Shown in pieces: positions 33,828 to 44,324 of a stretch of DNA of 64,000 bases. The position numbers and the translations under genes are program-made. The DNA is from an uncultured Gemmataceae bacterium (lineage in GTDB: Bacteria; Planctomycetota; Planctomycetia; Gemmatales; Gemmataceae), in contig CAVVPN010000003.1 of the NCBI GenBank assembly GCA_963750165.1, forward strand, positions 1,344,001-1,408,000, in the 5' to 3' direction. Under the pieces are notes generated by a model that had not been told where the DNA came from, searched no databases, and worked only from the letters and a program-made list of their open reading frames with translations. Numbering within the stretch: position 1 is the first letter of the stretch; the number at the start of each line of letters is the position of its first letter.

Positions 33828-36800
33828 TCACGGCGCCACGGCCGTCACGGTGCCATCCGGGTTTAGCCGCGTGGCGTAGCGGCGCTGGAACTGGTAATAG
33901 TCGGCGCTGGTGATGTAGCCGCGCCCCGAATAGTCCAGGAACGCCCGGTATTTGGTCTGGCCGAGCACACTGTTCAGCGACTGCTGCATCGTCGTCAGGT
34001 CCACGTTGGTGACCTGACCGTCGCCGTTGACGTCGCCGAAGTAGCGGAAGAACGCCGCCGCCTGCGCCGCGAACGGGTCGCCCGCCGTCGCCAACCCCGG
34101 CCCGCCCGGGCCGCCGCCCTGGATCGCCGACTCGTTGAATTGCAGCGTGTAATTGCCGTCCTCCAGCGAGGCGAACTCCGTGCCCAGGCCGCTGAAGCTG
34201 TAAATCACCGTGTAGTTGCCGTTCGTGCGGTTGTAGGAAGCGCTGAACACGTTGGCGTGGATCAGCGTGCCGCCCGCCGCCCCGTACGGCCCGTTCACCT
34301 TGATGAGATCCAGGCCGCGGTTCGTCGTCGGTGATTGCAGGTTCGGGTCCAGGAACACGAAACTGCTGAACGTCACCTGAAGGTAACGGATCGCCGACTT
34401 CTGGCCGTTGTTGACGTTGCCGGCGGCTCCGGCCACCAGCGTACTCGTGCCGCCCTGGACCGCCGGGAGCGCGAAGTTCGCCGAGTAATTGACGCTGCCC
34501 ACGACCACCGGCGGCGGCGCCGAGGTGTTGCCGTAGGTCACGAAGCCGAGGCTGCTGTCGTCCAGGTCGTGCTCGATCAGCTGCTCGACCTGGAACAGCG
34601 GCAGGTTGGCGTTGCCGTTCCAGGTGTTGTTCTGAGCGGTCACGTCCATGCGGCCCAGCTGCGGCCCCACGGCGCCGTAGTTGAACGACTGCTCCACGCC
34701 GTTCGGCAGGGCGCCGAACGGAGCCGTGCCAGTGTTCAAATCGCGGATGGCCTGCGGGAAGATCGGCCCCGGGTTGGGCGTGGCCGTGGCCGAGGTATCC
34801 AGCGTGTAGCCGTTGAACGTGTTGTTGCCCGTGCTGTGGGCGGTCGAGCCCAGCGGTGTGCCGCTCAGCAGACCGGTGATGTCGCCGTAGTAGCCGACGT
34901 TGCCGGCCGGCCCGTTCGGCAGCGGTGTCGCCGACGCCGCCAGCTGGCCCGCATCCACGATGCCGCCGTTCTGCACCTGCAGGCCGCTGGCGAAGTTGCC
35001 GACGTTGTCGTTGTTGATGTGGTCGCCCTGCAGCAGCGCCGTGCCGCCGGCGACCAGCACGCCGACGTTCTGGTCCTGCACCGTGCTGTTCTGCAGGTTG
35101 GCGCTGGCCCTGGCCTGCACGCGGACGCCCACGGCGGTGACGTTGCCGCTGACCAGCTTGTCCACCGTGATGCCCGCGGTGGTGCCGATCTGCACGAACA
35201 CGCTGCCTGGGTTCACGTCAATGCCGATGCCGCCCGTCGTCTGCGGGTTGTCGATCGTCAGGTTTTGAATCTGCGTCGGGTTCGCCCGGGTGCTGGCGAT
35301 CACGGCCACCTGGCCCTTGATCGTGCCGCTGCCGTTGAGCACCACGCCGGCCGAGTCCAGGCTGACCGCCCCGCCGTTCACCGTGGCGTTGTTGTTAATG
35401 GCCCCGCTGACCGTCAGCGTGCCGACGTTCACGATCGTCAGGCCGGTGTAGGTGTTCAGGCCGGACAGCGTGAACTGGTCGCTGCTCTGCTTGATCAGGT
35501 TGCCGCTGCCGCTCATGACGCCGGCGAACACGGTGTTGGTGGCGTCGCCCGTCCTCAGGGTGTAGGGGTTGAGCGTCACGAAGGTGCCGGCCACGCCGGT
35601 CAGGTCGCCGATGGTTACGGTGGTCTGCAGGTCGAGCGTGGCGCCGGCCACGGGGATCGTGACAGAATTCGTGGGAAAGATGGGTTGCGCCACCGCCAGG
35701 CTCAGGGTGCCGGCGTTGATCGTCGTCAGGCCGGTGTAGGTGTTGAAGCCGCTCAGCGTCAGTGTGCCGCTGCCGTTTTTGGTCAGCGTGCTGCCGCTGC
35801 CGTTGATTACCGACGAAATGCTGCCGGTGCCGGTGTTGGTCACCGTCATCGGCTGGCCGTTCAGGTTCACCGGGTTGCTGCTGATGCTCAGCGTGCCGGC
35901 GTCGGTGATGTTCACGGGACCGGCGGTCACAGTGATGCCGCCGCTGATGCCGAAGTTGGTGCCGGTCAGGTTGACGCCGCCCGCGGCGCTCGCGGTCAGC
36001 AGGCCGCTGAACGTCGAGGTGCCGGTGCCGGCCGATTGCGTGATCGCGCCGGCGGTGATGGCGCCGGCGTTGACGTTGTTGGCGGTGGTGATCGTCAGGC
36101 TGGTCAGCGGCGCGCTGCCGCCGACCGCCCCGCTCAGATTGACGCTGCCGGCTGCGGTCGGCGTCAGCGTCAGCGTCTGGGCGCCGTTGATGGTGCTGGC
36201 GAAATTGATGTTGCCGCCGCCGGTGTTCGTCACGATGACGTTGCTGGCCAGGGTCACCGGGTTGTTGACCTGGATGTTGCCGGCGCTGGTTTGCAAATTC
36301 GTGTTGAGGAATGTGCCGGCGCCGGCCGGGGCAGCCCCGCCGACGGCAGTGTTGTCCAGCGTCAGGGTGCCGGCGGCGCTCAGGGCGGTGTTGCCTGCCC
36401 AGTCGAGGCGCACGGCGTCCGTGCTGGTGCCGCCGGTGGCGAACACGTCCTTGCCGGTGGCGGTCAGGGTGCCCGCCGAGGTCACCTGGCCGGTGTTCGC
36501 CCCGGTGTGATCGACCCAGGCGCCGCCGGCGCCGACGCCCGCGGCGCCGGTGCCGGCGGTCAGGCTGACGTTGCCGGTGCCGCCCGTGGACAGCGGCGCC
36601 CGCACGATCACGTCCCGTGCCGCCGACAGCGTGGCGTTGCCATTGGTGGCGCTGACCGTTCCCATCGTGATTATGTCGCCGGCCGTAGTGGTCAGGGACA
36701 GGTTGCGCGTTGTCGCCGTCGGGCCGTTGGCCGTGACCGTGTCGGCCGTGATGGTGCCGCCGGCCGTGATGATGATGACACCGTCCGCGGTGGTCACACT

Positions 36801-39800
36801 GGTCAACGTCACCGCGTCCAGCTCGCCGATCCAGATCCCGTGCGTGCCGGCGTTGGGAGTGTTGGTGGTCGCGGCGGTGATGCTGTTGGCCGCGGTGTCG
36901 ATCATGGCCGTCGCCCCGGGCGCTCCAATGTCCACGGCGGCGGTCAGGTTGACCACGTTGCCGCTGATGCGCGTGGCGTTGTTGCCGTCGTCAAGGATGG
37001 AACCGGTGGTCGCCGTCACGGTGGCGGTGGCGGAGGCGGACACGGTCGTCACGGTCAGATTGCCGCTGGCCGCGGTCACGGTGGCGGTGCCGGTGGCGGC
37101 GCTGACGTTGAGCACGTTGGCCCCGGTGGTGTTGCGGATGCTCACGTCGCCGGTGCCGCTGCTGGTGGCCGTGATGTTGCTCACGGTCGTGTCCAGGCTG
37201 ATGCCGGTGCCGGCCGAGGCGGCCAGGCTCGTGGCGGCGACATTGACCGCCGCGCCGTTGCCGTCGGTGATGGCGCCGCCGCCGGCGTTCAGCGTGGCCG
37301 TGGTGCCCGCGGTGATGAGGGCGTTGGCGGCAATGGCCTGCGACGCGATGTTCACCGATCCTGCGAAGTTCACGGCGCCGTTGACGGCGACCGAGTCGGT
37401 GCCCACGCCGGTGTTGATCTGGAAATTGGTGATGTTGCTGGCGGTGCCGTTGGCGCCGCTGACGGTGATGGTGTCGTTGCCGTCAACGGTGGTGGTGTCA
37501 ATCACCAGGCTGGTATCGTTGAAGAAGGCGGGCGTCTCGATGGCCACGCCGCCGCTTGTGCCGGTGACGCGGATGGCGGAGACGGTGCCGGTCTGGAAGT
37601 CGGTGCCGTTGGCGACGGTCAGCACGTCGTTGGCGCCGGGCAGGTTGAGCGTCGCCGTGGTCATGCCCGAGATGTCTACAGGCTGCAGGCCGGTGAAGGT
37701 GATGAGCGTGCCGCCGACATTGATGGTGCCGTTGCCCGTGGTGACGGCGTCGGGCAGGTAGGTGGCGGCGTGGGCGCCGTCGCCCTTGACGTACAGGCGG
37801 TCGGTGATGCCGGCACCAGCGGTGCCGCCGTGGAAGATGACCGGCACCGCGAAAAAGCCGCCGACGTTGTAATCGATCAGCAGCGAATCGCTGACGCCGT
37901 TCTGGCCGTTGAGGGTGTATTGCGACACGGCTGCCACCGGGTGCGAATCGACCAGGACGCCGTTGCGGAACAGTTGCAGAAGGCTGCCGTTCCGCTCCAG
38001 CACGAAGTTGGCGCCGCCGCCGGTCTCGGTGTAGCTGGCCGGGCCGCTGACGTTCAGCGTCACGTCGTTGCCGTCGCCGCCGGCGTAGCTGATGACGCCG
38101 GTGAAGGCGCCGACGCTGACCGTGGCGCCTTCCGGCAAGCCGTTGAAGGTGCCGGTGACGGGATCGGTGCCGTCGTTGTTGATGATCTTGACAACGGTGC
38201 CGGCGGCCGGCGCCGCGGCGCCGCCCACCAGGTTCAGCGTGGCGCCGCCAAGGGTCACGGTGCCGGTCACGTTGGTCTGGTCGTAGTCAGTGCCGGCGGT
38301 GGCGTAAGGGCTGTTCAACTGAACCTTGTAGGTTGAACCGGCGGCCAGCGTCAGATTGCCGGTGCCGAGGATGGCGGGACTGCTGCCGGGGAACAGCGTG
38401 CTGCCGCTGTTGACCTGCACGGTGCCGGCGGCGGTGCCGGTGCCGCCAAGGGTCGCGGTGTTGTTCACGCTGACCGCGCTGCCGGCGGCGGTGGAGCCGT
38501 TGACCAGCAACGTGCCGCCGTTCGCGGTCGTGGTGCCGGTGTAGGTGTTGGTGCCGCTCAGGGTCAGGGTGCCGGCGCCGCTCTTCGTCAGCGCCACGGT
38601 GCCGCTGCCGTTCTGGATTACGCCAGAGAAACTGCCGCCGCCAGCCCCGACCGTCAAGGTAACTGCGCCGGCCACGCCGCTGCTCACCGTGCCGGTGCCG
38701 TTCAGGCCGTTGATCGTCGGGCTGAGGCCGTTCAGGTCGAGCGTGGCAGTCGTGAGCGTGACGCTGGTGGTGGTGGGGACGGCGGCGGCACTGGTGAAGC
38801 GGAACGTGTCGCTGGCCGCACCGCTGAACGTTTCTGTACCTGGGGCGAAGCCGTTGTCCATCGCCGCCAGCTGCACCAGGCTGCTGCTGCCGGCGGTATT
38901 GATGGTCAGGGACGTGGCGGGGTTGGCGAAGGTGGTGGTCTCGAACGCCGGGCCGCCGGTGCTGCGGATCTGCGAGACGCCGTCGGTGAGGTTGCCGTTG
39001 TCTTCCAGGCTGGCCTGGGCGCCGGCGGGCAGGTTGAACACCAGGTTGCCAACGGTGCTGCCGGTCATGTCCACCGGGGCGAGGCCGTCGTAGGTGATCG
39101 TGTCGGTGGTGGTGCCGGCGCCGGTCGTGTCGTAGACGAGACTGCCGCTGTGCCCGGGGCCGGTGGTCGTGAAGGTCGCCGTCGCCATGTTGAACGTGCC
39201 GCCCTTGACGACAAGATTGTCCCCCGCGTTGTTGCCGCCGTGGTAATCGATGGGCGTGGTGAAGAAGCCGCCCGTGCCGCCGAAATTCACCGTCAGCGTG
39301 TCGGTGCCGCCGGCGGTGTTGAAGATCAGGTGGCCGGTGACCGACGCTTGCGGGAGGGTCAGCGTCTGGTTGTTGTTGGAGAGCGTGCCGCCGCTGGGGG
39401 CCGACTGGAACTGCTGGCTGGCGTCGGTGATGACGAAATTGCCCGCGCCGTCGGCGCTGACGGTCAGGCTGTTGTTCACGTTGGCGGTGTCGGCAATGGT
39501 CAGGTTGCCGGAGCCGTCGAGCGTCGGCGCCAGGGTGCCCCCGGTCATCACGGCCTGTATCTGGGCCGTGCTCAGGGCGTTGTCGTAGAAGCGGACGTCA
39601 TCGACCAGGCCCGGGAACCAGATATTATTGTGCGCGTCGCCGCCGATGGTCGTGTACGGGTTGATGGTCAGCGCCGCGGGGTTCACGTTCGTAAGGGAGT
39701 TCTGCTGAACGCCGTCCACGTACAGATAAATCGTGCCGCCCTGCCGCTCCCCGGAGATGAAGTGCCACTGGCCGTCGTTGACCGAGGTGGTGGACTGGAT

Positions 39801-40256
39801 GGTGGTGTCCGGGCCGTAGGAGCCGCCGCCGATGCCGAACCCGAACTTACCGCCGGCGTTGATGGTAGTGCCGAAGTCGTTGGCTACCCCGGGCCACTCC
39901 GAGGTGATGATCGGGTTGCCGTTGTAGAACTGGTTGCCGCCGCCGCTGGCGGTGGTCTTGATCCAGGCCGTGATGGTGAAGTCATTCTGGACCGGCCGGT
40001 TGATCTGGACGTATTGCCCACTGCCGGCGAAACTGAACGCCTGGCCGTAGACGCCGGGGGCGTAGGCGGCGGTGCCGACCCAGGTGCCGTTGTCGGTCCC
40101 CTGGCTGTCATTGGCGTTGCCTTCGGCCTGATACCAGTCCACCAGGGCGGGAGTCAGACGGATTTCAAGGGGCTCCAGCTGCAACCGCACCCGGTTGCGC
40201 CGGGCCGACGTGCCAGAGGAATTCCGAGACCACTTCTTCAGCCAGTTGAAGATCAC
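33828..40256 (-). CDS. Large secreted adhesin-like protein (LEPR-XLL-like motif, LamG, beta-helix/autotransporter-type repeats, C-terminal dockerin-like domain)
   Basis: GTG start after AGGAG; RLQLEPLEIRLTPA; LamG (NDGQWHF..LYVDG..GLVDDVRFY); LTKSGAGTLTLSGTNTYTG-type repeats; RYFGDVNGDGQV. Confidence 0.88.
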   Translation of the reverse strand: MIFNWLKKWSRNSSGTSARRNRVRLQLEPLEIRLTPALVDWYQAEGNANDSQGTDNGTWVGTAAYAPGVYGQAFSFAGSGQYVQINRPVQNDFTITAWIKTTASGGGNQFYNGNPIITSEWPGVANDFGTTINAGGKFGFGIGGGSYGPDTTIQSTTSVNDGQWHFISGERQGGTIYLYVDGVQQNSLTNVNPAALTINPYTTIGGDAHNNIWFPGLVDDVRFYDNALSTAQIQAVMTGGTLAPTLDGSGNLTIADTANVNNSLTVSADGAGNFVITDASQQFQSAPSGGTLSNNNQTLTLPQASVTGHLIFNTAGGTDTLTVNFGGTGGFFTTPIDYHGGNNAGDNLVVKGGTFNMATATFTTTGPGHSGSLVYDTTGAGTTTDTITYDGLAPVDMTGSTVGNLVFNLPAGAQASLEDNGNLTDGVSQIRSTGGPAFETTTFANPATSLTINTAGSSSLVQLAAMDNGFAPGTETFSGAASDTFRFTSAAAVPTTTSVTLTTATLDLNGLSPTINGLNGTGTVSSGVAGAVTLTVGAGGGSFSGVIQNGSGTVALTKSGAGTLTLSGTNTYTGTTTANGGTLLVNGSTAAGSAVSVNNTATLGGTGTAAGTVQVNSGSTLFPGSSPAILGTGNLTLAAGSTYKVQLNSPYATAGTDYDQTNVTGTVTLGGATLNLVGGAAAPAAGTVVKIINNDGTDPVTGTFNGLPEGATVSVGAFTGVISYAGGDGNDVTLNVSGPASYTETGGGANFVLERNGSLLQLFRNGVLVDSHPVAAVSQYTLNGQNGVSDSLLIDYNVGGFFAVPVIFHGGTAGAGITDRLYVKGDGAHAATYLPDAVTTGNGTINVGGTLITFTGLQPVDISGMTTATLNLPGANDVLTVANGTDFQTGTVSAIRVTGTSGGVAIETPAFFNDTSLVIDTTTVDGNDTITVSGANGTASNITNFQINTGVGTDSVAVNGAVNFAGSVNIASQAIAANALITAGTTATLNAGGGAITDGNGAAVNVAATSLAASAGTGISLDTTVSNITATSSGTGDVSIRNTTGANVLNVSAATGTATVTAASGNLTVTTVSASATATVTATTGSILDDGNNATRISGNVVNLTAAVDIGAPGATAMIDTAANSITAATTNTPNAGTHGIWIGELDAVTLTSVTTADGVIIITAGGTITADTVTANGPTATTRNLSLTTTAGDIITMGTVSATNGNATLSAARDVIVRAPLSTGGTGNVSLTAGTGAAGVGAGGAWVDHTGANTGQVTSAGTLTATGKDVFATGGTSTDAVRLDWAGNTALSAAGTLTLDNTAVGGAAPAGAGTFLNTNLQTSAGNIQVNNPVTLASNVIVTNTGGGNINFASTINGAQTLTLTPTAAGSVNLSGAVGGSAPLTSLTITTANNVNAGAITAGAITQSAGTGTSTFSGLLTASAAGGVNLTGTNFGISGGITVTAGPVNITDAGTLSISSNPVNLNGQPMTVTNTGTGSISSVINGSGSTLTKNGSGTLTLSGFNTYTGLTTINAGTLSLAVAQPIFPTNSVTIPVAGATLDLQTTVTIGDLTGVAGTFVTLNPYTLRTGDATNTVFAGVMSGSGNLIKQSSDQFTLSGLNTYTGLTIVNVGTLTVSGAINNNATVNGGAVSLDSAGVVLNGSGTIKGQVAVIASTRANPTQIQNLTIDNPQTTGGIGIDVNPGSVFVQIGTTAGITVDKLVSGNVTAVGVRVQARASANLQNSTVQDQNVGVLVAGGTALLQGDHINNDNVGNFASGLQVQNGGIVDAGQLAASATPLPNGPAGNVGYYGDITGLLSGTPLGSTAHSTGNNTFNGYTLDTSATATPNPGPIFPQAIRDLNTGTAPFGALPNGVEQSFNYGAVGPQLGRMDVTAQNNTWNGNANLPLFQVEQLIEHDLDDSSLGFVTYGNTSAPPPVVVGSVNYSANFALPAVQGGTSTLVAGAAGNVNNGQKSAIRYLQVTFSSFVFLDPNLQSPTTNRGLDLIKVNGPYGAAGGTLIHANVFSASYNRTNGNYTVIYSFSGLGTEFASLEDGNYTLQFNESAIQGGGPGGPGLATAGDPFAAQAAAFFRYFGDVNGDGQVTNVDLTTMQQSLNSVLGQTKYRAFLDYSGRGYITSADYYQFQRRYATRLNPDGTVTAVAP

Positions 40257-40651
40257 AGGTGCGACTCCTGAGCAAAGAGAATGCGGTCTGACCCAGGGCA
40301 ACAGGGAAACCGGCAGGGCCTGGGGCGCGGAGACAAAAGTTGTTACGCGAATCAAACGGAATGATTCTGCAGACCCCTCGTTTTGTGCCCATCCTGCGGC
40401 GCATTGGGAAAACGCATTATGTGTTGGTAGGATGTTACGATCCGGCAAAAAGTTCCGTCAAACGAAAAAGCACCGATTCTGCCCGCCGCGCCAATATAGC
40501 TCCCGTACAGCCGGCAGATCGGAGATTCTTGCCAGATTCGCTACACCTGGCAAATTCACTCCGTTTCTCCCGGGCGCCCCTGCCGACAGCTGACGTAGTG
40601 TATAGTGTTACCCCGGCGCTCTCCCCTTCCATCACCCTGCGAGGACCGGCC

Positions 40652-42993: not shown

Positions 42994-43001
42994 CCTCCTT
43001 C

Positions 43002-43067
43002 TCGTGGGGCAGACATTCCTGTCTGCCATCTTTTGAAGGTTGGCAGACAGGAATGTCTGCCCCACGA
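43002..43067. repeat. REP-like palindrome (GTGGGGCAG family)
   Basis: TCGTGGGGCAGACATTCCTGTCTGCCA / TGGCAGACAGGAATGTCTGCCCCACGA perfect IR. Confidence 0.9.
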
Positions 43068-43076
43068 AAATTGCTC

Positions 43077-43105
43077 TTGCCACGCAGGCCGACCGTCGCT
43101 ATACG
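43077..43105 (+). promoter_or_regulatory. Candidate sigma70 promoter of the structured RNA
   Basis: TTGCCA-N17-TATACG. Confidence 0.5.
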
Positions 43106-43111
43106 CCCCCC

Positions 43112-43430
43112 TCGTTGTTGACGACGGCTGACGCCACCGCCGCGGACGACACCCGTTTCACACAGCCGAACTCTGCTGCGTGCCGGATTTTGCGGGAAAC
43201 CGGCACTGTCCGCCCTCCTGGGCAGTAGCGTTCATCTCGCTGGGACCAGTGGTTTTGGGTCGGCCACCCCAGTGGGAGCTTCGCAGTAGAGTTCTTGTCG
43301 GACCGGGAGCCGGGCCCTTGTGCCCGGCTCCCGGGGATACACCGCGACCAGCCTTCCCCTGAGCCGTCGGTCGGCGCCGCCGTGTGCGGGCCGGCCGACG
43401 TTCCAGGGGAGGGCTTGTCGCATTTTTATA
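43112..43430 (+). ncRNA. Candidate novel structured non-coding RNA (~310 nt)
   Basis: 13-bp closing helix 43168-43180/43282-43294 enclosing four hairpins, perfect 13-bp hairpin 43303-43334, long hairpin 43345-43420 plus T-tract; G-U wobbles favour the + strand. Confidence 0.55.
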
Positions 43431-43551
43431 CTCTTGCATGTGCAATTTTTGCAAGCCTGCCCCATTTCACCGCTGTAAAAAAGGTCGCCCAACCGGTCGT
43501 GTCGCCGACCCACATTGCGAAATTTCCAGGGTTTTTCGGCTTTCCGGCGTT

Positions 43552-43567
43552 TGGCACACCATGTGCA
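43552..43567 (+). promoter_or_regulatory. Candidate sigma54 (-24/-12) promoter
   Basis: TGGCAC-ACCAT-GTGCA with GG and GC 12 bp apart; TGCAA-TTT-TTGCA palindrome ~110 bp upstream. Confidence 0.55.
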
Positions 43568-43710
43568 ACATTTATTTCTAGTTGGTACATCTTGCGGAAC
43601 AACCCGGGGGCCAACCGACCCCCGGAAACACACCCCGTTGCTTTCCTCGGAACAAAGCCACGGTTTTTCCGGACGCGCACCCCGTGCGCAACAGAGAAGA
43701 GGTACGTCTC

Positions 43711-44268
43711 ATGGCCGCCCTGCAACTGGCCATCGCCCTGGTTTGGCTGTCCACGCCCCCCGATCAATTTACCTGCCCTGAGATGAACCAGTGGCACCGG
43801 GTGCTGGCCGGGCCGATCCGGGTGCTGGCCCTGCGCTGGGAGGTGCTCGACCCGCGCGAGGCCGGCCACCTGCTCGCCCGCGCCGAGGACTTCAAGGACG
43901 ACCTGCGCACCCTGCAGGAGCGCTGCGAGGAGTTGCGCACGGCGCCGCCGCTGTGCGAGGCCGAGCGTTTCCCGGGCCGCGATCTGGTCAGCGACATGAT
44001 GGCCTTCAACCGCGCCTATCACGACAACCTCAGCAAGCGGCTTGAACTGGACCGCATCCACGCCGAGGAGTTGCGTCAGGCACTGCAGGAGACCGATCAG
44101 CTGCACCGCGTTTGGAATACCGTCCACGAGATCAACTGCCCGTATTACTACGTCACCTACCGCCGCCAGGCCCTGCGGCAGTTGCGCGAACTGATCGGCG
44201 AGCAGGCGTTCTACACCGGCAACCTGCCGCCGCACGTGCCGCTCTGGCGCATCCCGGAAGCCCGTTGA
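43711..44268 (+). CDS. Hypothetical protein, probably exported
   Basis: SD GAGG, hydrophobic N-terminus, normal codon usage, ends LPPHVPLWR. Confidence 0.8.
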   Translation: MAALQLAIALVWLSTPPDQFTCPEMNQWHRVLAGPIRVLALRWEVLDPREAGHLLARAEDFKDDLRTLQERCEELRTAPPLCEAERFPGRDLVSDMMAFNRAYHDNLSKRLELDRIHAEELRQALQETDQLHRVWNTVHEINCPYYYVTYRRQALRQLRELIGEQAFYTGNLPPHVPLWRIPEAR

Positions 44269-44271
44269 GCA

Positions 44272-44324
44272 AAAAAGATTCACCACAGCGAACGCTCTCC
44301 GCGTTCGCTGTGGTGAATCTTTTT
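44272..44324. terminator. Bidirectional terminator-like palindrome between convergent genes
   Basis: Perfect 24-bp IR AAAAAGATTCACCACAGCGAACGC / GCGTTCGCTGTGGTGAATCTTTTT. Confidence 0.8.

Follow-up and report, generated by a model that had tools for sequence, protein, structure and literature searches.

A predicted structured RNA class of planctomycetes with ties to peptidoglycan operons

Several large orphan non-coding RNAs of bacteria, among them the raiA motif and OLE, are highly structured and single-copy and have conserved neighbours, yet are able to stand alone. The subject of this study is an RNA encoded around positions 43168-43343 of a 64-kb window (the whole stretch of DNA that was analysed) from the genome of an uncultured Gemmataceae bacterium, referred to as G000, whose assembly is 93% complete. 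Like the raiA motif and OLE, this planctomycete RNA is structured and single-copy, has conserved neighbours and can stand alone; however, it is smaller, has another fold, does not score against Rfam and belongs to one class of the Planctomycetota. It is almost certainly a real structured RNA, and most likely a trans-acting RNA that was born in a peptidoglycan operon.

Structured RNAs with a link to the cell wall have been described in other phyla. In the part of the catalogue PMC2864571 considered here, the mraW motif (RF01746) is listed as a cis-regulatory RNA of Actinomycetales, and it is likewise tied to a division and cell wall cluster; the planctomycete RNA, however, lies between murF and mraY, also occurs stand-alone and has no Rfam match. 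The sole Planctomycetes motif in the table of the same paper, Rhodopirellula-1, differs as well: its sequence is unrelated, its fold is that of a short bulged hairpin, and it is flagged as repetitive. Rli31 of Listeria uses a C-rich apical loop for pairing and has an effect on lysozyme resistance, according to the sections of PMC4959528 that were covered. The C-rich apical loop, the link to the cell wall and the presence of SpoVG (147 of 150 genomes) are also found in the planctomycete class; however, Rli31 is a single long hairpin with a terminator, whereas the planctomycete RNA has an optional C-rich loop and two fixed G-rich loops.

An earlier sequence-only reading of the locus had proposed a structured RNA of no recognised class with its own promoter and terminator. 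In agreement with this, Rfam 15 gave no match at gathering score, neither in the window, where generic hairpin matches remained far below threshold, nor among 10 diverse homologous loci. ARAGORN reported nothing in the window, and tmRNA, RNase P, signal recognition particle and 6S RNA were rejected as candidates, since each has its own above-cut-off gene elsewhere in G000. A Y RNA was rejected as well: TROVE occurs in 13 of 150 genomes, none of which is among the 69 RNA carriers. The motif is absent from the main texts of PMC5737381 and two 2026 bioRxiv catalogues and from one small supplement of PMC8632094; it was not described in any place covered and may be listed in the remaining catalogue supplements or elsewhere. 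On the sequence comparisons made here, it is a previously uncatalogued class of predicted structured RNA; novelty applies to the RNA class, and the mechanism may be familiar.

Architecture and covariation

The RNA lies in the intergenic region 42994-43710, which is bounded by a zinc-binding dehydrogenase gene (Pfam) and a gene for a 185-amino acid (aa) protein of no known family. The predicted transcript is approximately 315 nt long, and the conserved unit within it approximately 175 nt (43168-43343). At the family level, the consensus consists of a four-way junction without unpaired junction bases, followed by the hairpin P7. In G000, the core junction (43168-43294, + strand) is formed by P1 (43168-79/43283-94), P2 (43180-86/43200-06), P3 (43207-11/43220-24) and an arm of P4 (43225-29/43278-82), P5 (43236-44/43268-77) and P6 (43249-54/43262-67). 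The terminal loops are the invariant L2 (UGCGGG, 43191-43196), usually closed by a U-A pair, the C-rich L3 (GCCCUCCU, 43212-43219), which is common yet replaceable, and the invariant L6 ((N)NUGGGUC, 43255-43261). P7 (43303-15/43322-34) and the GGAUAC tail behind it (together 43303-43343) covary, but are absent from some members of family f2 and others. On the 5' side, a variable leader (43112-43167) probably starts near 43112, and BLAST matches mostly begin near 43160; leaders range from 23 to 144 nt in 36 loci, in which a common sequence was not evident on inspection. On the 3' side, a long hairpin (43344-75/43390-421) with a T-rich tract behind it (together 43344-43430) is a probable terminator and varies among homologues.

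The element TTGCCA-N17-TATACG, the helix 43168-80/43282-94 and the perfect hairpin 43303-15/43322-34 are located where the sequence-only reading had placed them. Its RNA of about 310 nt is indeed structured, but only the part 43168-43343 is conserved. A 5' helix, CGGCTG/CAGCCG, exists but is situated in the non-conserved leader, and the long 3' hairpin, followed by ATTTTTATA, is present at the locus but varies among homologues, and a consensus scanner did not call this terminator. The pairing AGCG/CGCT at 43227-41 had to be given up, as the conserved pairings instead join 43225-29 with 43278-82 and 43236-44 with 43268-77.

The evidence that carries the structure is covariation among homologues, whose existence had been made a check by the sequence-only reading. 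In a MAFFT alignment of G000 and its 29 best matches (n=30), 98.7% of cells pair and two-sided changes are found in 25 of 54 pairs; none of 500 shuffles reaches this level, and slid registers give 2-7 pairs. RNAalifold recovers the same junction de novo from 30 hand-picked diverse sequences (58% identity) that were aligned without the covariance model, and 37 of its 41 pairs show two-sided changes. A model-fitted alignment of 64 sequences raises this to 53 of 54 pairs, a number that is biased toward the model. Folding energies agree with a structured RNA: compared to shuffles, the region 43110-43430 has a z-score of -7.3 on the + strand and -6.6 on the - strand, and the core alone reaches -4.4 (no shuffle folds as well in either case). 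Since both strands fold well, folding energy alone leaves the strand undecided. Across homologues, however, G-U cells outnumber A-C cells by 198 to 6 (alignment A1), and therefore the + strand is favoured, as had been argued from the stems of G000.

The good folding of both strands and the REP-like (repetitive extragenic palindromic) palindromes on either side of the RNA could also be explained by a DNA palindrome, a REP or miniature inverted-repeat transposable element, or chance folding of GC-rich sequence. This explanation is extremely improbable and was refuted by the class-wide covariation, the one-strand G-U bias, the fixed synteny and the single copy of the RNA. The core occurs once in G000 (one genome bin of 200 nt), whereas the neighbouring palindrome at 42998-43070, outside the RNA, has BLAST matches in 115 such bins; the many scattered copies expected of a mobile element were thus found for the neighbour and not for the RNA. 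Viral contigs, phages and plasmids gave no matches. A second, different REP-like palindrome lies at 44272-44324 (27 genome bins).

The stems vary freely and the internal loops are not conserved, whereas L2 and L6 hardly vary: GCGGG of L2 is kept in 62 of 64 sequences (alignment A3), where a U-A pair closes the loop in 143 of 162, and TGGGTC of L6 in 61 of 64. Free stems with near-fixed loops are the usual mark of a binding surface, which may thus be present here. L3 is the least conserved loop (CCTCC in 45 of 64); several lineages that retain the remaining structure have tetraloops in its place or have nearly deleted it. A GGA within the tail after P7 is found in 45 of 64 sequences.

Several pairing partners of the loops were considered. 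A kissing interaction between L2 and L3 was rejected, as complementarity was found in 12 of 18 variant loops compared to 10.1 expected (p=0.17), and a 12-nt stretch at 43501-12 that is complementary to L6 shows no conservation (8 of 158 versus 14.8 expected). No conserved complement of the invariant loops was found within 400 nt of the RNA. Complements in rRNA are just 6-7 nt long, in what was a weak test, since the usual helix-37 motif was not found in the upstream stretch presumed to be 16S. Because the stems are free, the terminal loops fixed and conserved complements not seen nearby, a protein or a ligand is indicated as partner. A bulged hairpin, GCUGAUCGG...CCGGUCGGC, is conserved in the terminal stem of a subset of copies, namely 8 of 164 loci (L003, L005, L006, L009, L017, L027, L298 and L309), and the long 3' hairpin of G000 looks related. 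This bulged hairpin may be an accessory domain.

L3 resembles the anti-Shine-Dalgarno end of the 16S rRNA of G000 (ACCUCCU), which raises the doubtful but conceivable option of an Hfq-independent small RNA whose CCUCCU loop blocks the ribosome-binding sites of envelope mRNAs and forms the repressing arm of an envelope regulon. Shine-Dalgarno-like words precede 835 of 1871 open reading frames (ORFs) of G000, compared to 8% at a control position, and Hfq was not found in any of five genomes searched (G000, G129, G324, G387 and G401). Small RNAs of the cuckoo and RNAIII types also act by anti-Shine-Dalgarno pairing. A precedent with a C-rich apical loop and an effect on lysozyme resistance is Rli31, as far as the covered part of PMC4959528 goes. 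However, it is L3 that was repeatedly replaced or nearly deleted, and the invariant loops are G-rich.

The GGGA in L2 and the GGA in the tail, both conserved, could alternatively make the RNA a sponge for CsrA paralogues, of which G000 has seven matches and G129, G324, G387 and G401 have 5-13. We consider this very unlikely: there are just two to three GGA sites per RNA, the A of L2 is usually paired, the leaders are not rich in GGA (44 versus 52.5 expected), and CsrA is equally common in the RNA-less genomes G129 and G324.

Distribution and position in mur operons

Where records with strong matches carry titles, these name mostly Gemmataceae, Gemmatales or planctomycete bins; family f1 was therefore taken to be Gemmataceae and the class to be Planctomycetia. 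Among 150 genomes of the family, BLAST matches at E <=1e-7 were found in 51, mostly within 43160-43347. The covariance model R2 detects one copy each in 68 of 149 class genomes, with large differences between families (f1, 8 of 30; f71, 5 of 5; f3, 17 of 19; f2, 20 of 36; f73, 0 of 36). The large searches scored 17-21 candidates per genome, so that a genome without a match is one in which the RNA was not found. One family genome, G162, has two full matches on separate contigs. In a sample of the phylum, the RNA was found in 7 of 149 genomes, every one of them within the class, with no credible match elsewhere. Likewise, 121 genomes from the phylum of a record titled Verrucomicrobiia gave no credible match; three weak matches among them were rejected, as one runs antisense across two genes and two consist mainly of a P7-like hairpin. 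In metagenomes, a search with the loop pattern yielded at least 120 loci, and R2 confirmed 78 of 80 among the matches listed. The first genome pattern was too short: among the matches listed, 11 of 80 contained the RNA at more than 140 bits and one more contained it partly, and the others were due to chance. A full-length copy (L059:2908-3096, 156.7 bits) stands in a bin titled Alcaligenaceae, which probably contains a mislabelled or misbinned planctomycete contig.

Clustering of the flanking ORFs and family scans revealed two arrangements, and distances to murF and mraY were compared by hand from their coordinates. In all 29 genomes with both the RNA and an above-cut-off murF, the RNA starts at most 400 nt after murF, and in 27 of these mraY follows the RNA within 330 nt; the remaining two are cut by contig ends. 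Among 101 distinct loci, murE or murF is located upstream in 37, and mraY in 22, the gene of the 185-aa protein in 19 and a convergent P-II gene in 7 downstream. Mur genes are found upstream with neither mraY nor murG following in 11 of the 101 loci, two of which end at a contig break, and murG lies directly downstream in four loci. The second arrangement is that of G000, which has no tblastn match to MurE, MurF, MraY or MurG queries. More generally, mraY was found in 47 of 150 genomes and was not found in 39 of the 68 RNA carriers; in some of these the RNA lies behind a mur ligase gene, in others it stands alone. Neither murF nor mraY was found in any of 30 f1 genomes, and mraY was not found in any of the 19 f3 and 36 f73 genomes searched. 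The operon position is common to f2, f72, f76, f77, f78, f80 and f82 and is therefore probably ancestral.

Remnants of the RNA were sought in genomes that do not carry it. None were found at the mraY junction of 18 non-carriers (best score 11.1 bits; one of the regions is just 152 nt long), ahead of the neighbour gene in 14 genomes of f1, or in five near-complete genomes that were scored more deeply and gave one 18-bit match, which lies within a coding region. Real, repeated loss is therefore favoured. A small hairpin with a GCGGGA loop precedes mraY at L255:641-760 (11 bits), which belongs to a genus whose mraY has left the vicinity of murF. Since a sister genome has GCTGGA instead, this hairpin is unlikely to be a remnant.

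The position next to mraY is what a riboswitch or attenuator of mraY-ftsW-murG would occupy, sensing for instance a UDP-MurNAc-peptide; stand-alone copies would then be orphans or RNAs that bind a ligand. The gene that directly follows the RNA is mraY in 27 of 29 genomes and murG in four loci, a hairpin with a T tract separates it from mraY in 13 of 22 loci, and its size and invariant loops fit an aptamer. However, the 39 carriers without mraY, the copies that face convergent genes, a junction without conserved nucleotides for a pocket and an anti-terminator that was not seen by eye make this unlikely. Furthermore, the stand-alone copies of f1 are 75-85% identical across genera. As this identity is retained where no gene is left to be controlled in cis, the RNA is predicted, with good confidence, to act in trans. 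The location between two genes of one operon would also suit a ribozyme, or an element that processes itself, with the mur message or a different RNA as the molecule to be cleaved, and a junction without unpaired bases recalls the hairpin ribozyme, whose internal loops A and B are conserved. In the planctomycete RNA, however, internal loops vary and the terminal loops alone are fixed, no Rfam ribozyme matches, and stand-alone copies would require a substrate in trans; this option is quite remote.

The stand-alone promoter class

At the stand-alone loci, the RNA is preceded by the pattern TT(G/C)NCA-N17-TA(T/A)NNN and a C-rich run, in which the last T of the -10 box is nearly always absent. In G000, the putative promoter (43077-43111, + strand) consists of TTGCCA (43077-82), a 17-nt spacer, TATACG (43100-05) and a C-rich discriminator, again without the last T. 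A consensus promoter scanner consequently missed it, as the last T is absent, and its backing comes from conservation among homologues. The pattern was found at 36 of 63 stand-alone loci, from which it was itself derived and one of which proved to have a mur gene upstream, and at 0 of 36 mur-adjacent loci; shuffles gave 1-2% and tRNA genes 1 of 97. This promoter, which the sequence-only reading had proposed for the locus, is absent in many other families of the class, which have the RNA within their mur operon. In a lenient test that had no control and left the G000 locus itself unflagged, a hairpin with a T tract was seen behind 50 of 63 stand-alone loci. The overall proposal of the sequence-only reading, a structured RNA of unknown class with its own transcription, is supported, as no Rfam match was obtained, the core is single-copy and its homologues covary.

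A matrix built from 36 homologous sites, with G000 excluded, ranks the G000 site first in its genome (34.7 bits, compared to 24.9 bits for the next). Proteins with a hydrophobic N-terminus follow 10 of 13 other G000 sites above 18 bits and 14 of the top 20 sites, compared to 31% of 3353 ORFs and 30 of 108 canonical promoters. Pfam matches downstream of such sites include BamA, a porin, an FlgI-like protein (FlgI-HEAT), DUF6134 and a WD40 protein, in a scan that covered 17 of the top 20 sites and three lower ones picked because they looked envelope-related. In G000, bamA and further genes of exported proteins are preceded by the class TGCTCTTGACA-N17-TATANN with a C-rich run, in whose -10 box the last T is absent. 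Genes with such promoters may form an envelope regulon that is controlled by an alternative sigma factor or an activator.

Proposed role and neighbouring elements

Tentatively, we favour a protein-bound regulator that is tied to the cell envelope and docks via its two invariant G-rich loops. Where the mur operon persists, the RNA would derive from its message, and in genomes that have lost the operon it would be transcribed separately, from a promoter of its own; it would then fold into a rigid four-way junction. This junction might space the UGCGGG and UGGGUC loops at a fixed distance, thereby forming a docking site for a putative protein, and the C-rich loop might serve as an optional additional contact. 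It is tempting to speculate that the complex tunes the expression of envelope genes post-transcriptionally.

A number of results weigh against such an envelope regulator. In 81 of 149 genomes of the class, 18 of the 47 with mraY among them, no copy was found, and the RNA is therefore dispensable for wall synthesis; in addition, related genomes are not independent. No co-distributed protein emerged among SpoVG, TROVE and the 185-aa neighbour. The link to the envelope via the promoter is soft: the plain-pattern version gives 5 of 13 compared to 30 of 108 (p=0.52), shuffled DNA yields equally many sites of 15-18 bits (4 versus 4), and on the matrix the heads of 20 mur operons do not exceed 10.9 bits. 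Finally, a transcript was not seen in a search of RNA runs, which is evidence neither way: one run, X1, was returned, with 0.07 of the words, and a lone 199-nt contig (depth 2.5) matches 43278-43343 and then continues with unlike sequence.

In a bolder version of the favoured regulator, which we hold to be rather unlikely, the RNA would form the centre of a so far undescribed machine, either a ribonucleoprotein or a ligand-binding RNA. It would have arisen within the peptidoglycan operon of a budding-planctomycete ancestor, would serve the unusual envelope or budding division, would be needed enough to outlive murE, murF and mraY, and would have been re-wired to an envelope-type promoter.

The gene downstream of the RNA in G000 (43711-44268, + strand) encodes the 185-aa protein, which has a hydrophobic N-terminus, no Pfam match and no counterpart in the ESM Atlas. 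It has 435 homologues and is confined to one order: the gene was found in 26 of 30 f1 and 5 of 5 f71 genomes, RNA-less ones included, and in 0 of 114 others. As it occurs without the RNA and is limited to one order, it was rejected as a co-distributed partner. The sequence-only reading had assigned it a sigma54 promoter of its own, and this sigma54-like site (43552-43567, + strand) is indeed conserved where the gene follows the RNA, recurring in 11 of 18 gene-bearing loci compared to 6 of 82 others. Elsewhere in the window, a 2206-aa repeat-rich ORF (33828-40448, - strand) looks by eye like a secreted adhesin or surface protein. Among 97 ARAGORN calls genome-wide, 16 tRNA genes form an array of approximately 1.6 kb (G000 C10:88560-90130).

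Judged from genome comparison, the evolutionary story is clear and the class is real. Newly found bacterial RNA classes of such size, covariation strength and class-wide range are rare. Envelope building and FtsZ-less division of planctomycetes are an open question, as the part of PMC12283558 considered here puts it, and many planctomycetes are devoid of the usual genes for wall synthesis (mraY was found in 47 of 150 genomes). An RNA that came from a wall operon, outlasted the loss of this operon and has also disappeared from several lineages would be a small, knock-out-ready handle on envelope and division, and natural RNA-positive and RNA-negative strains allow a comparison.
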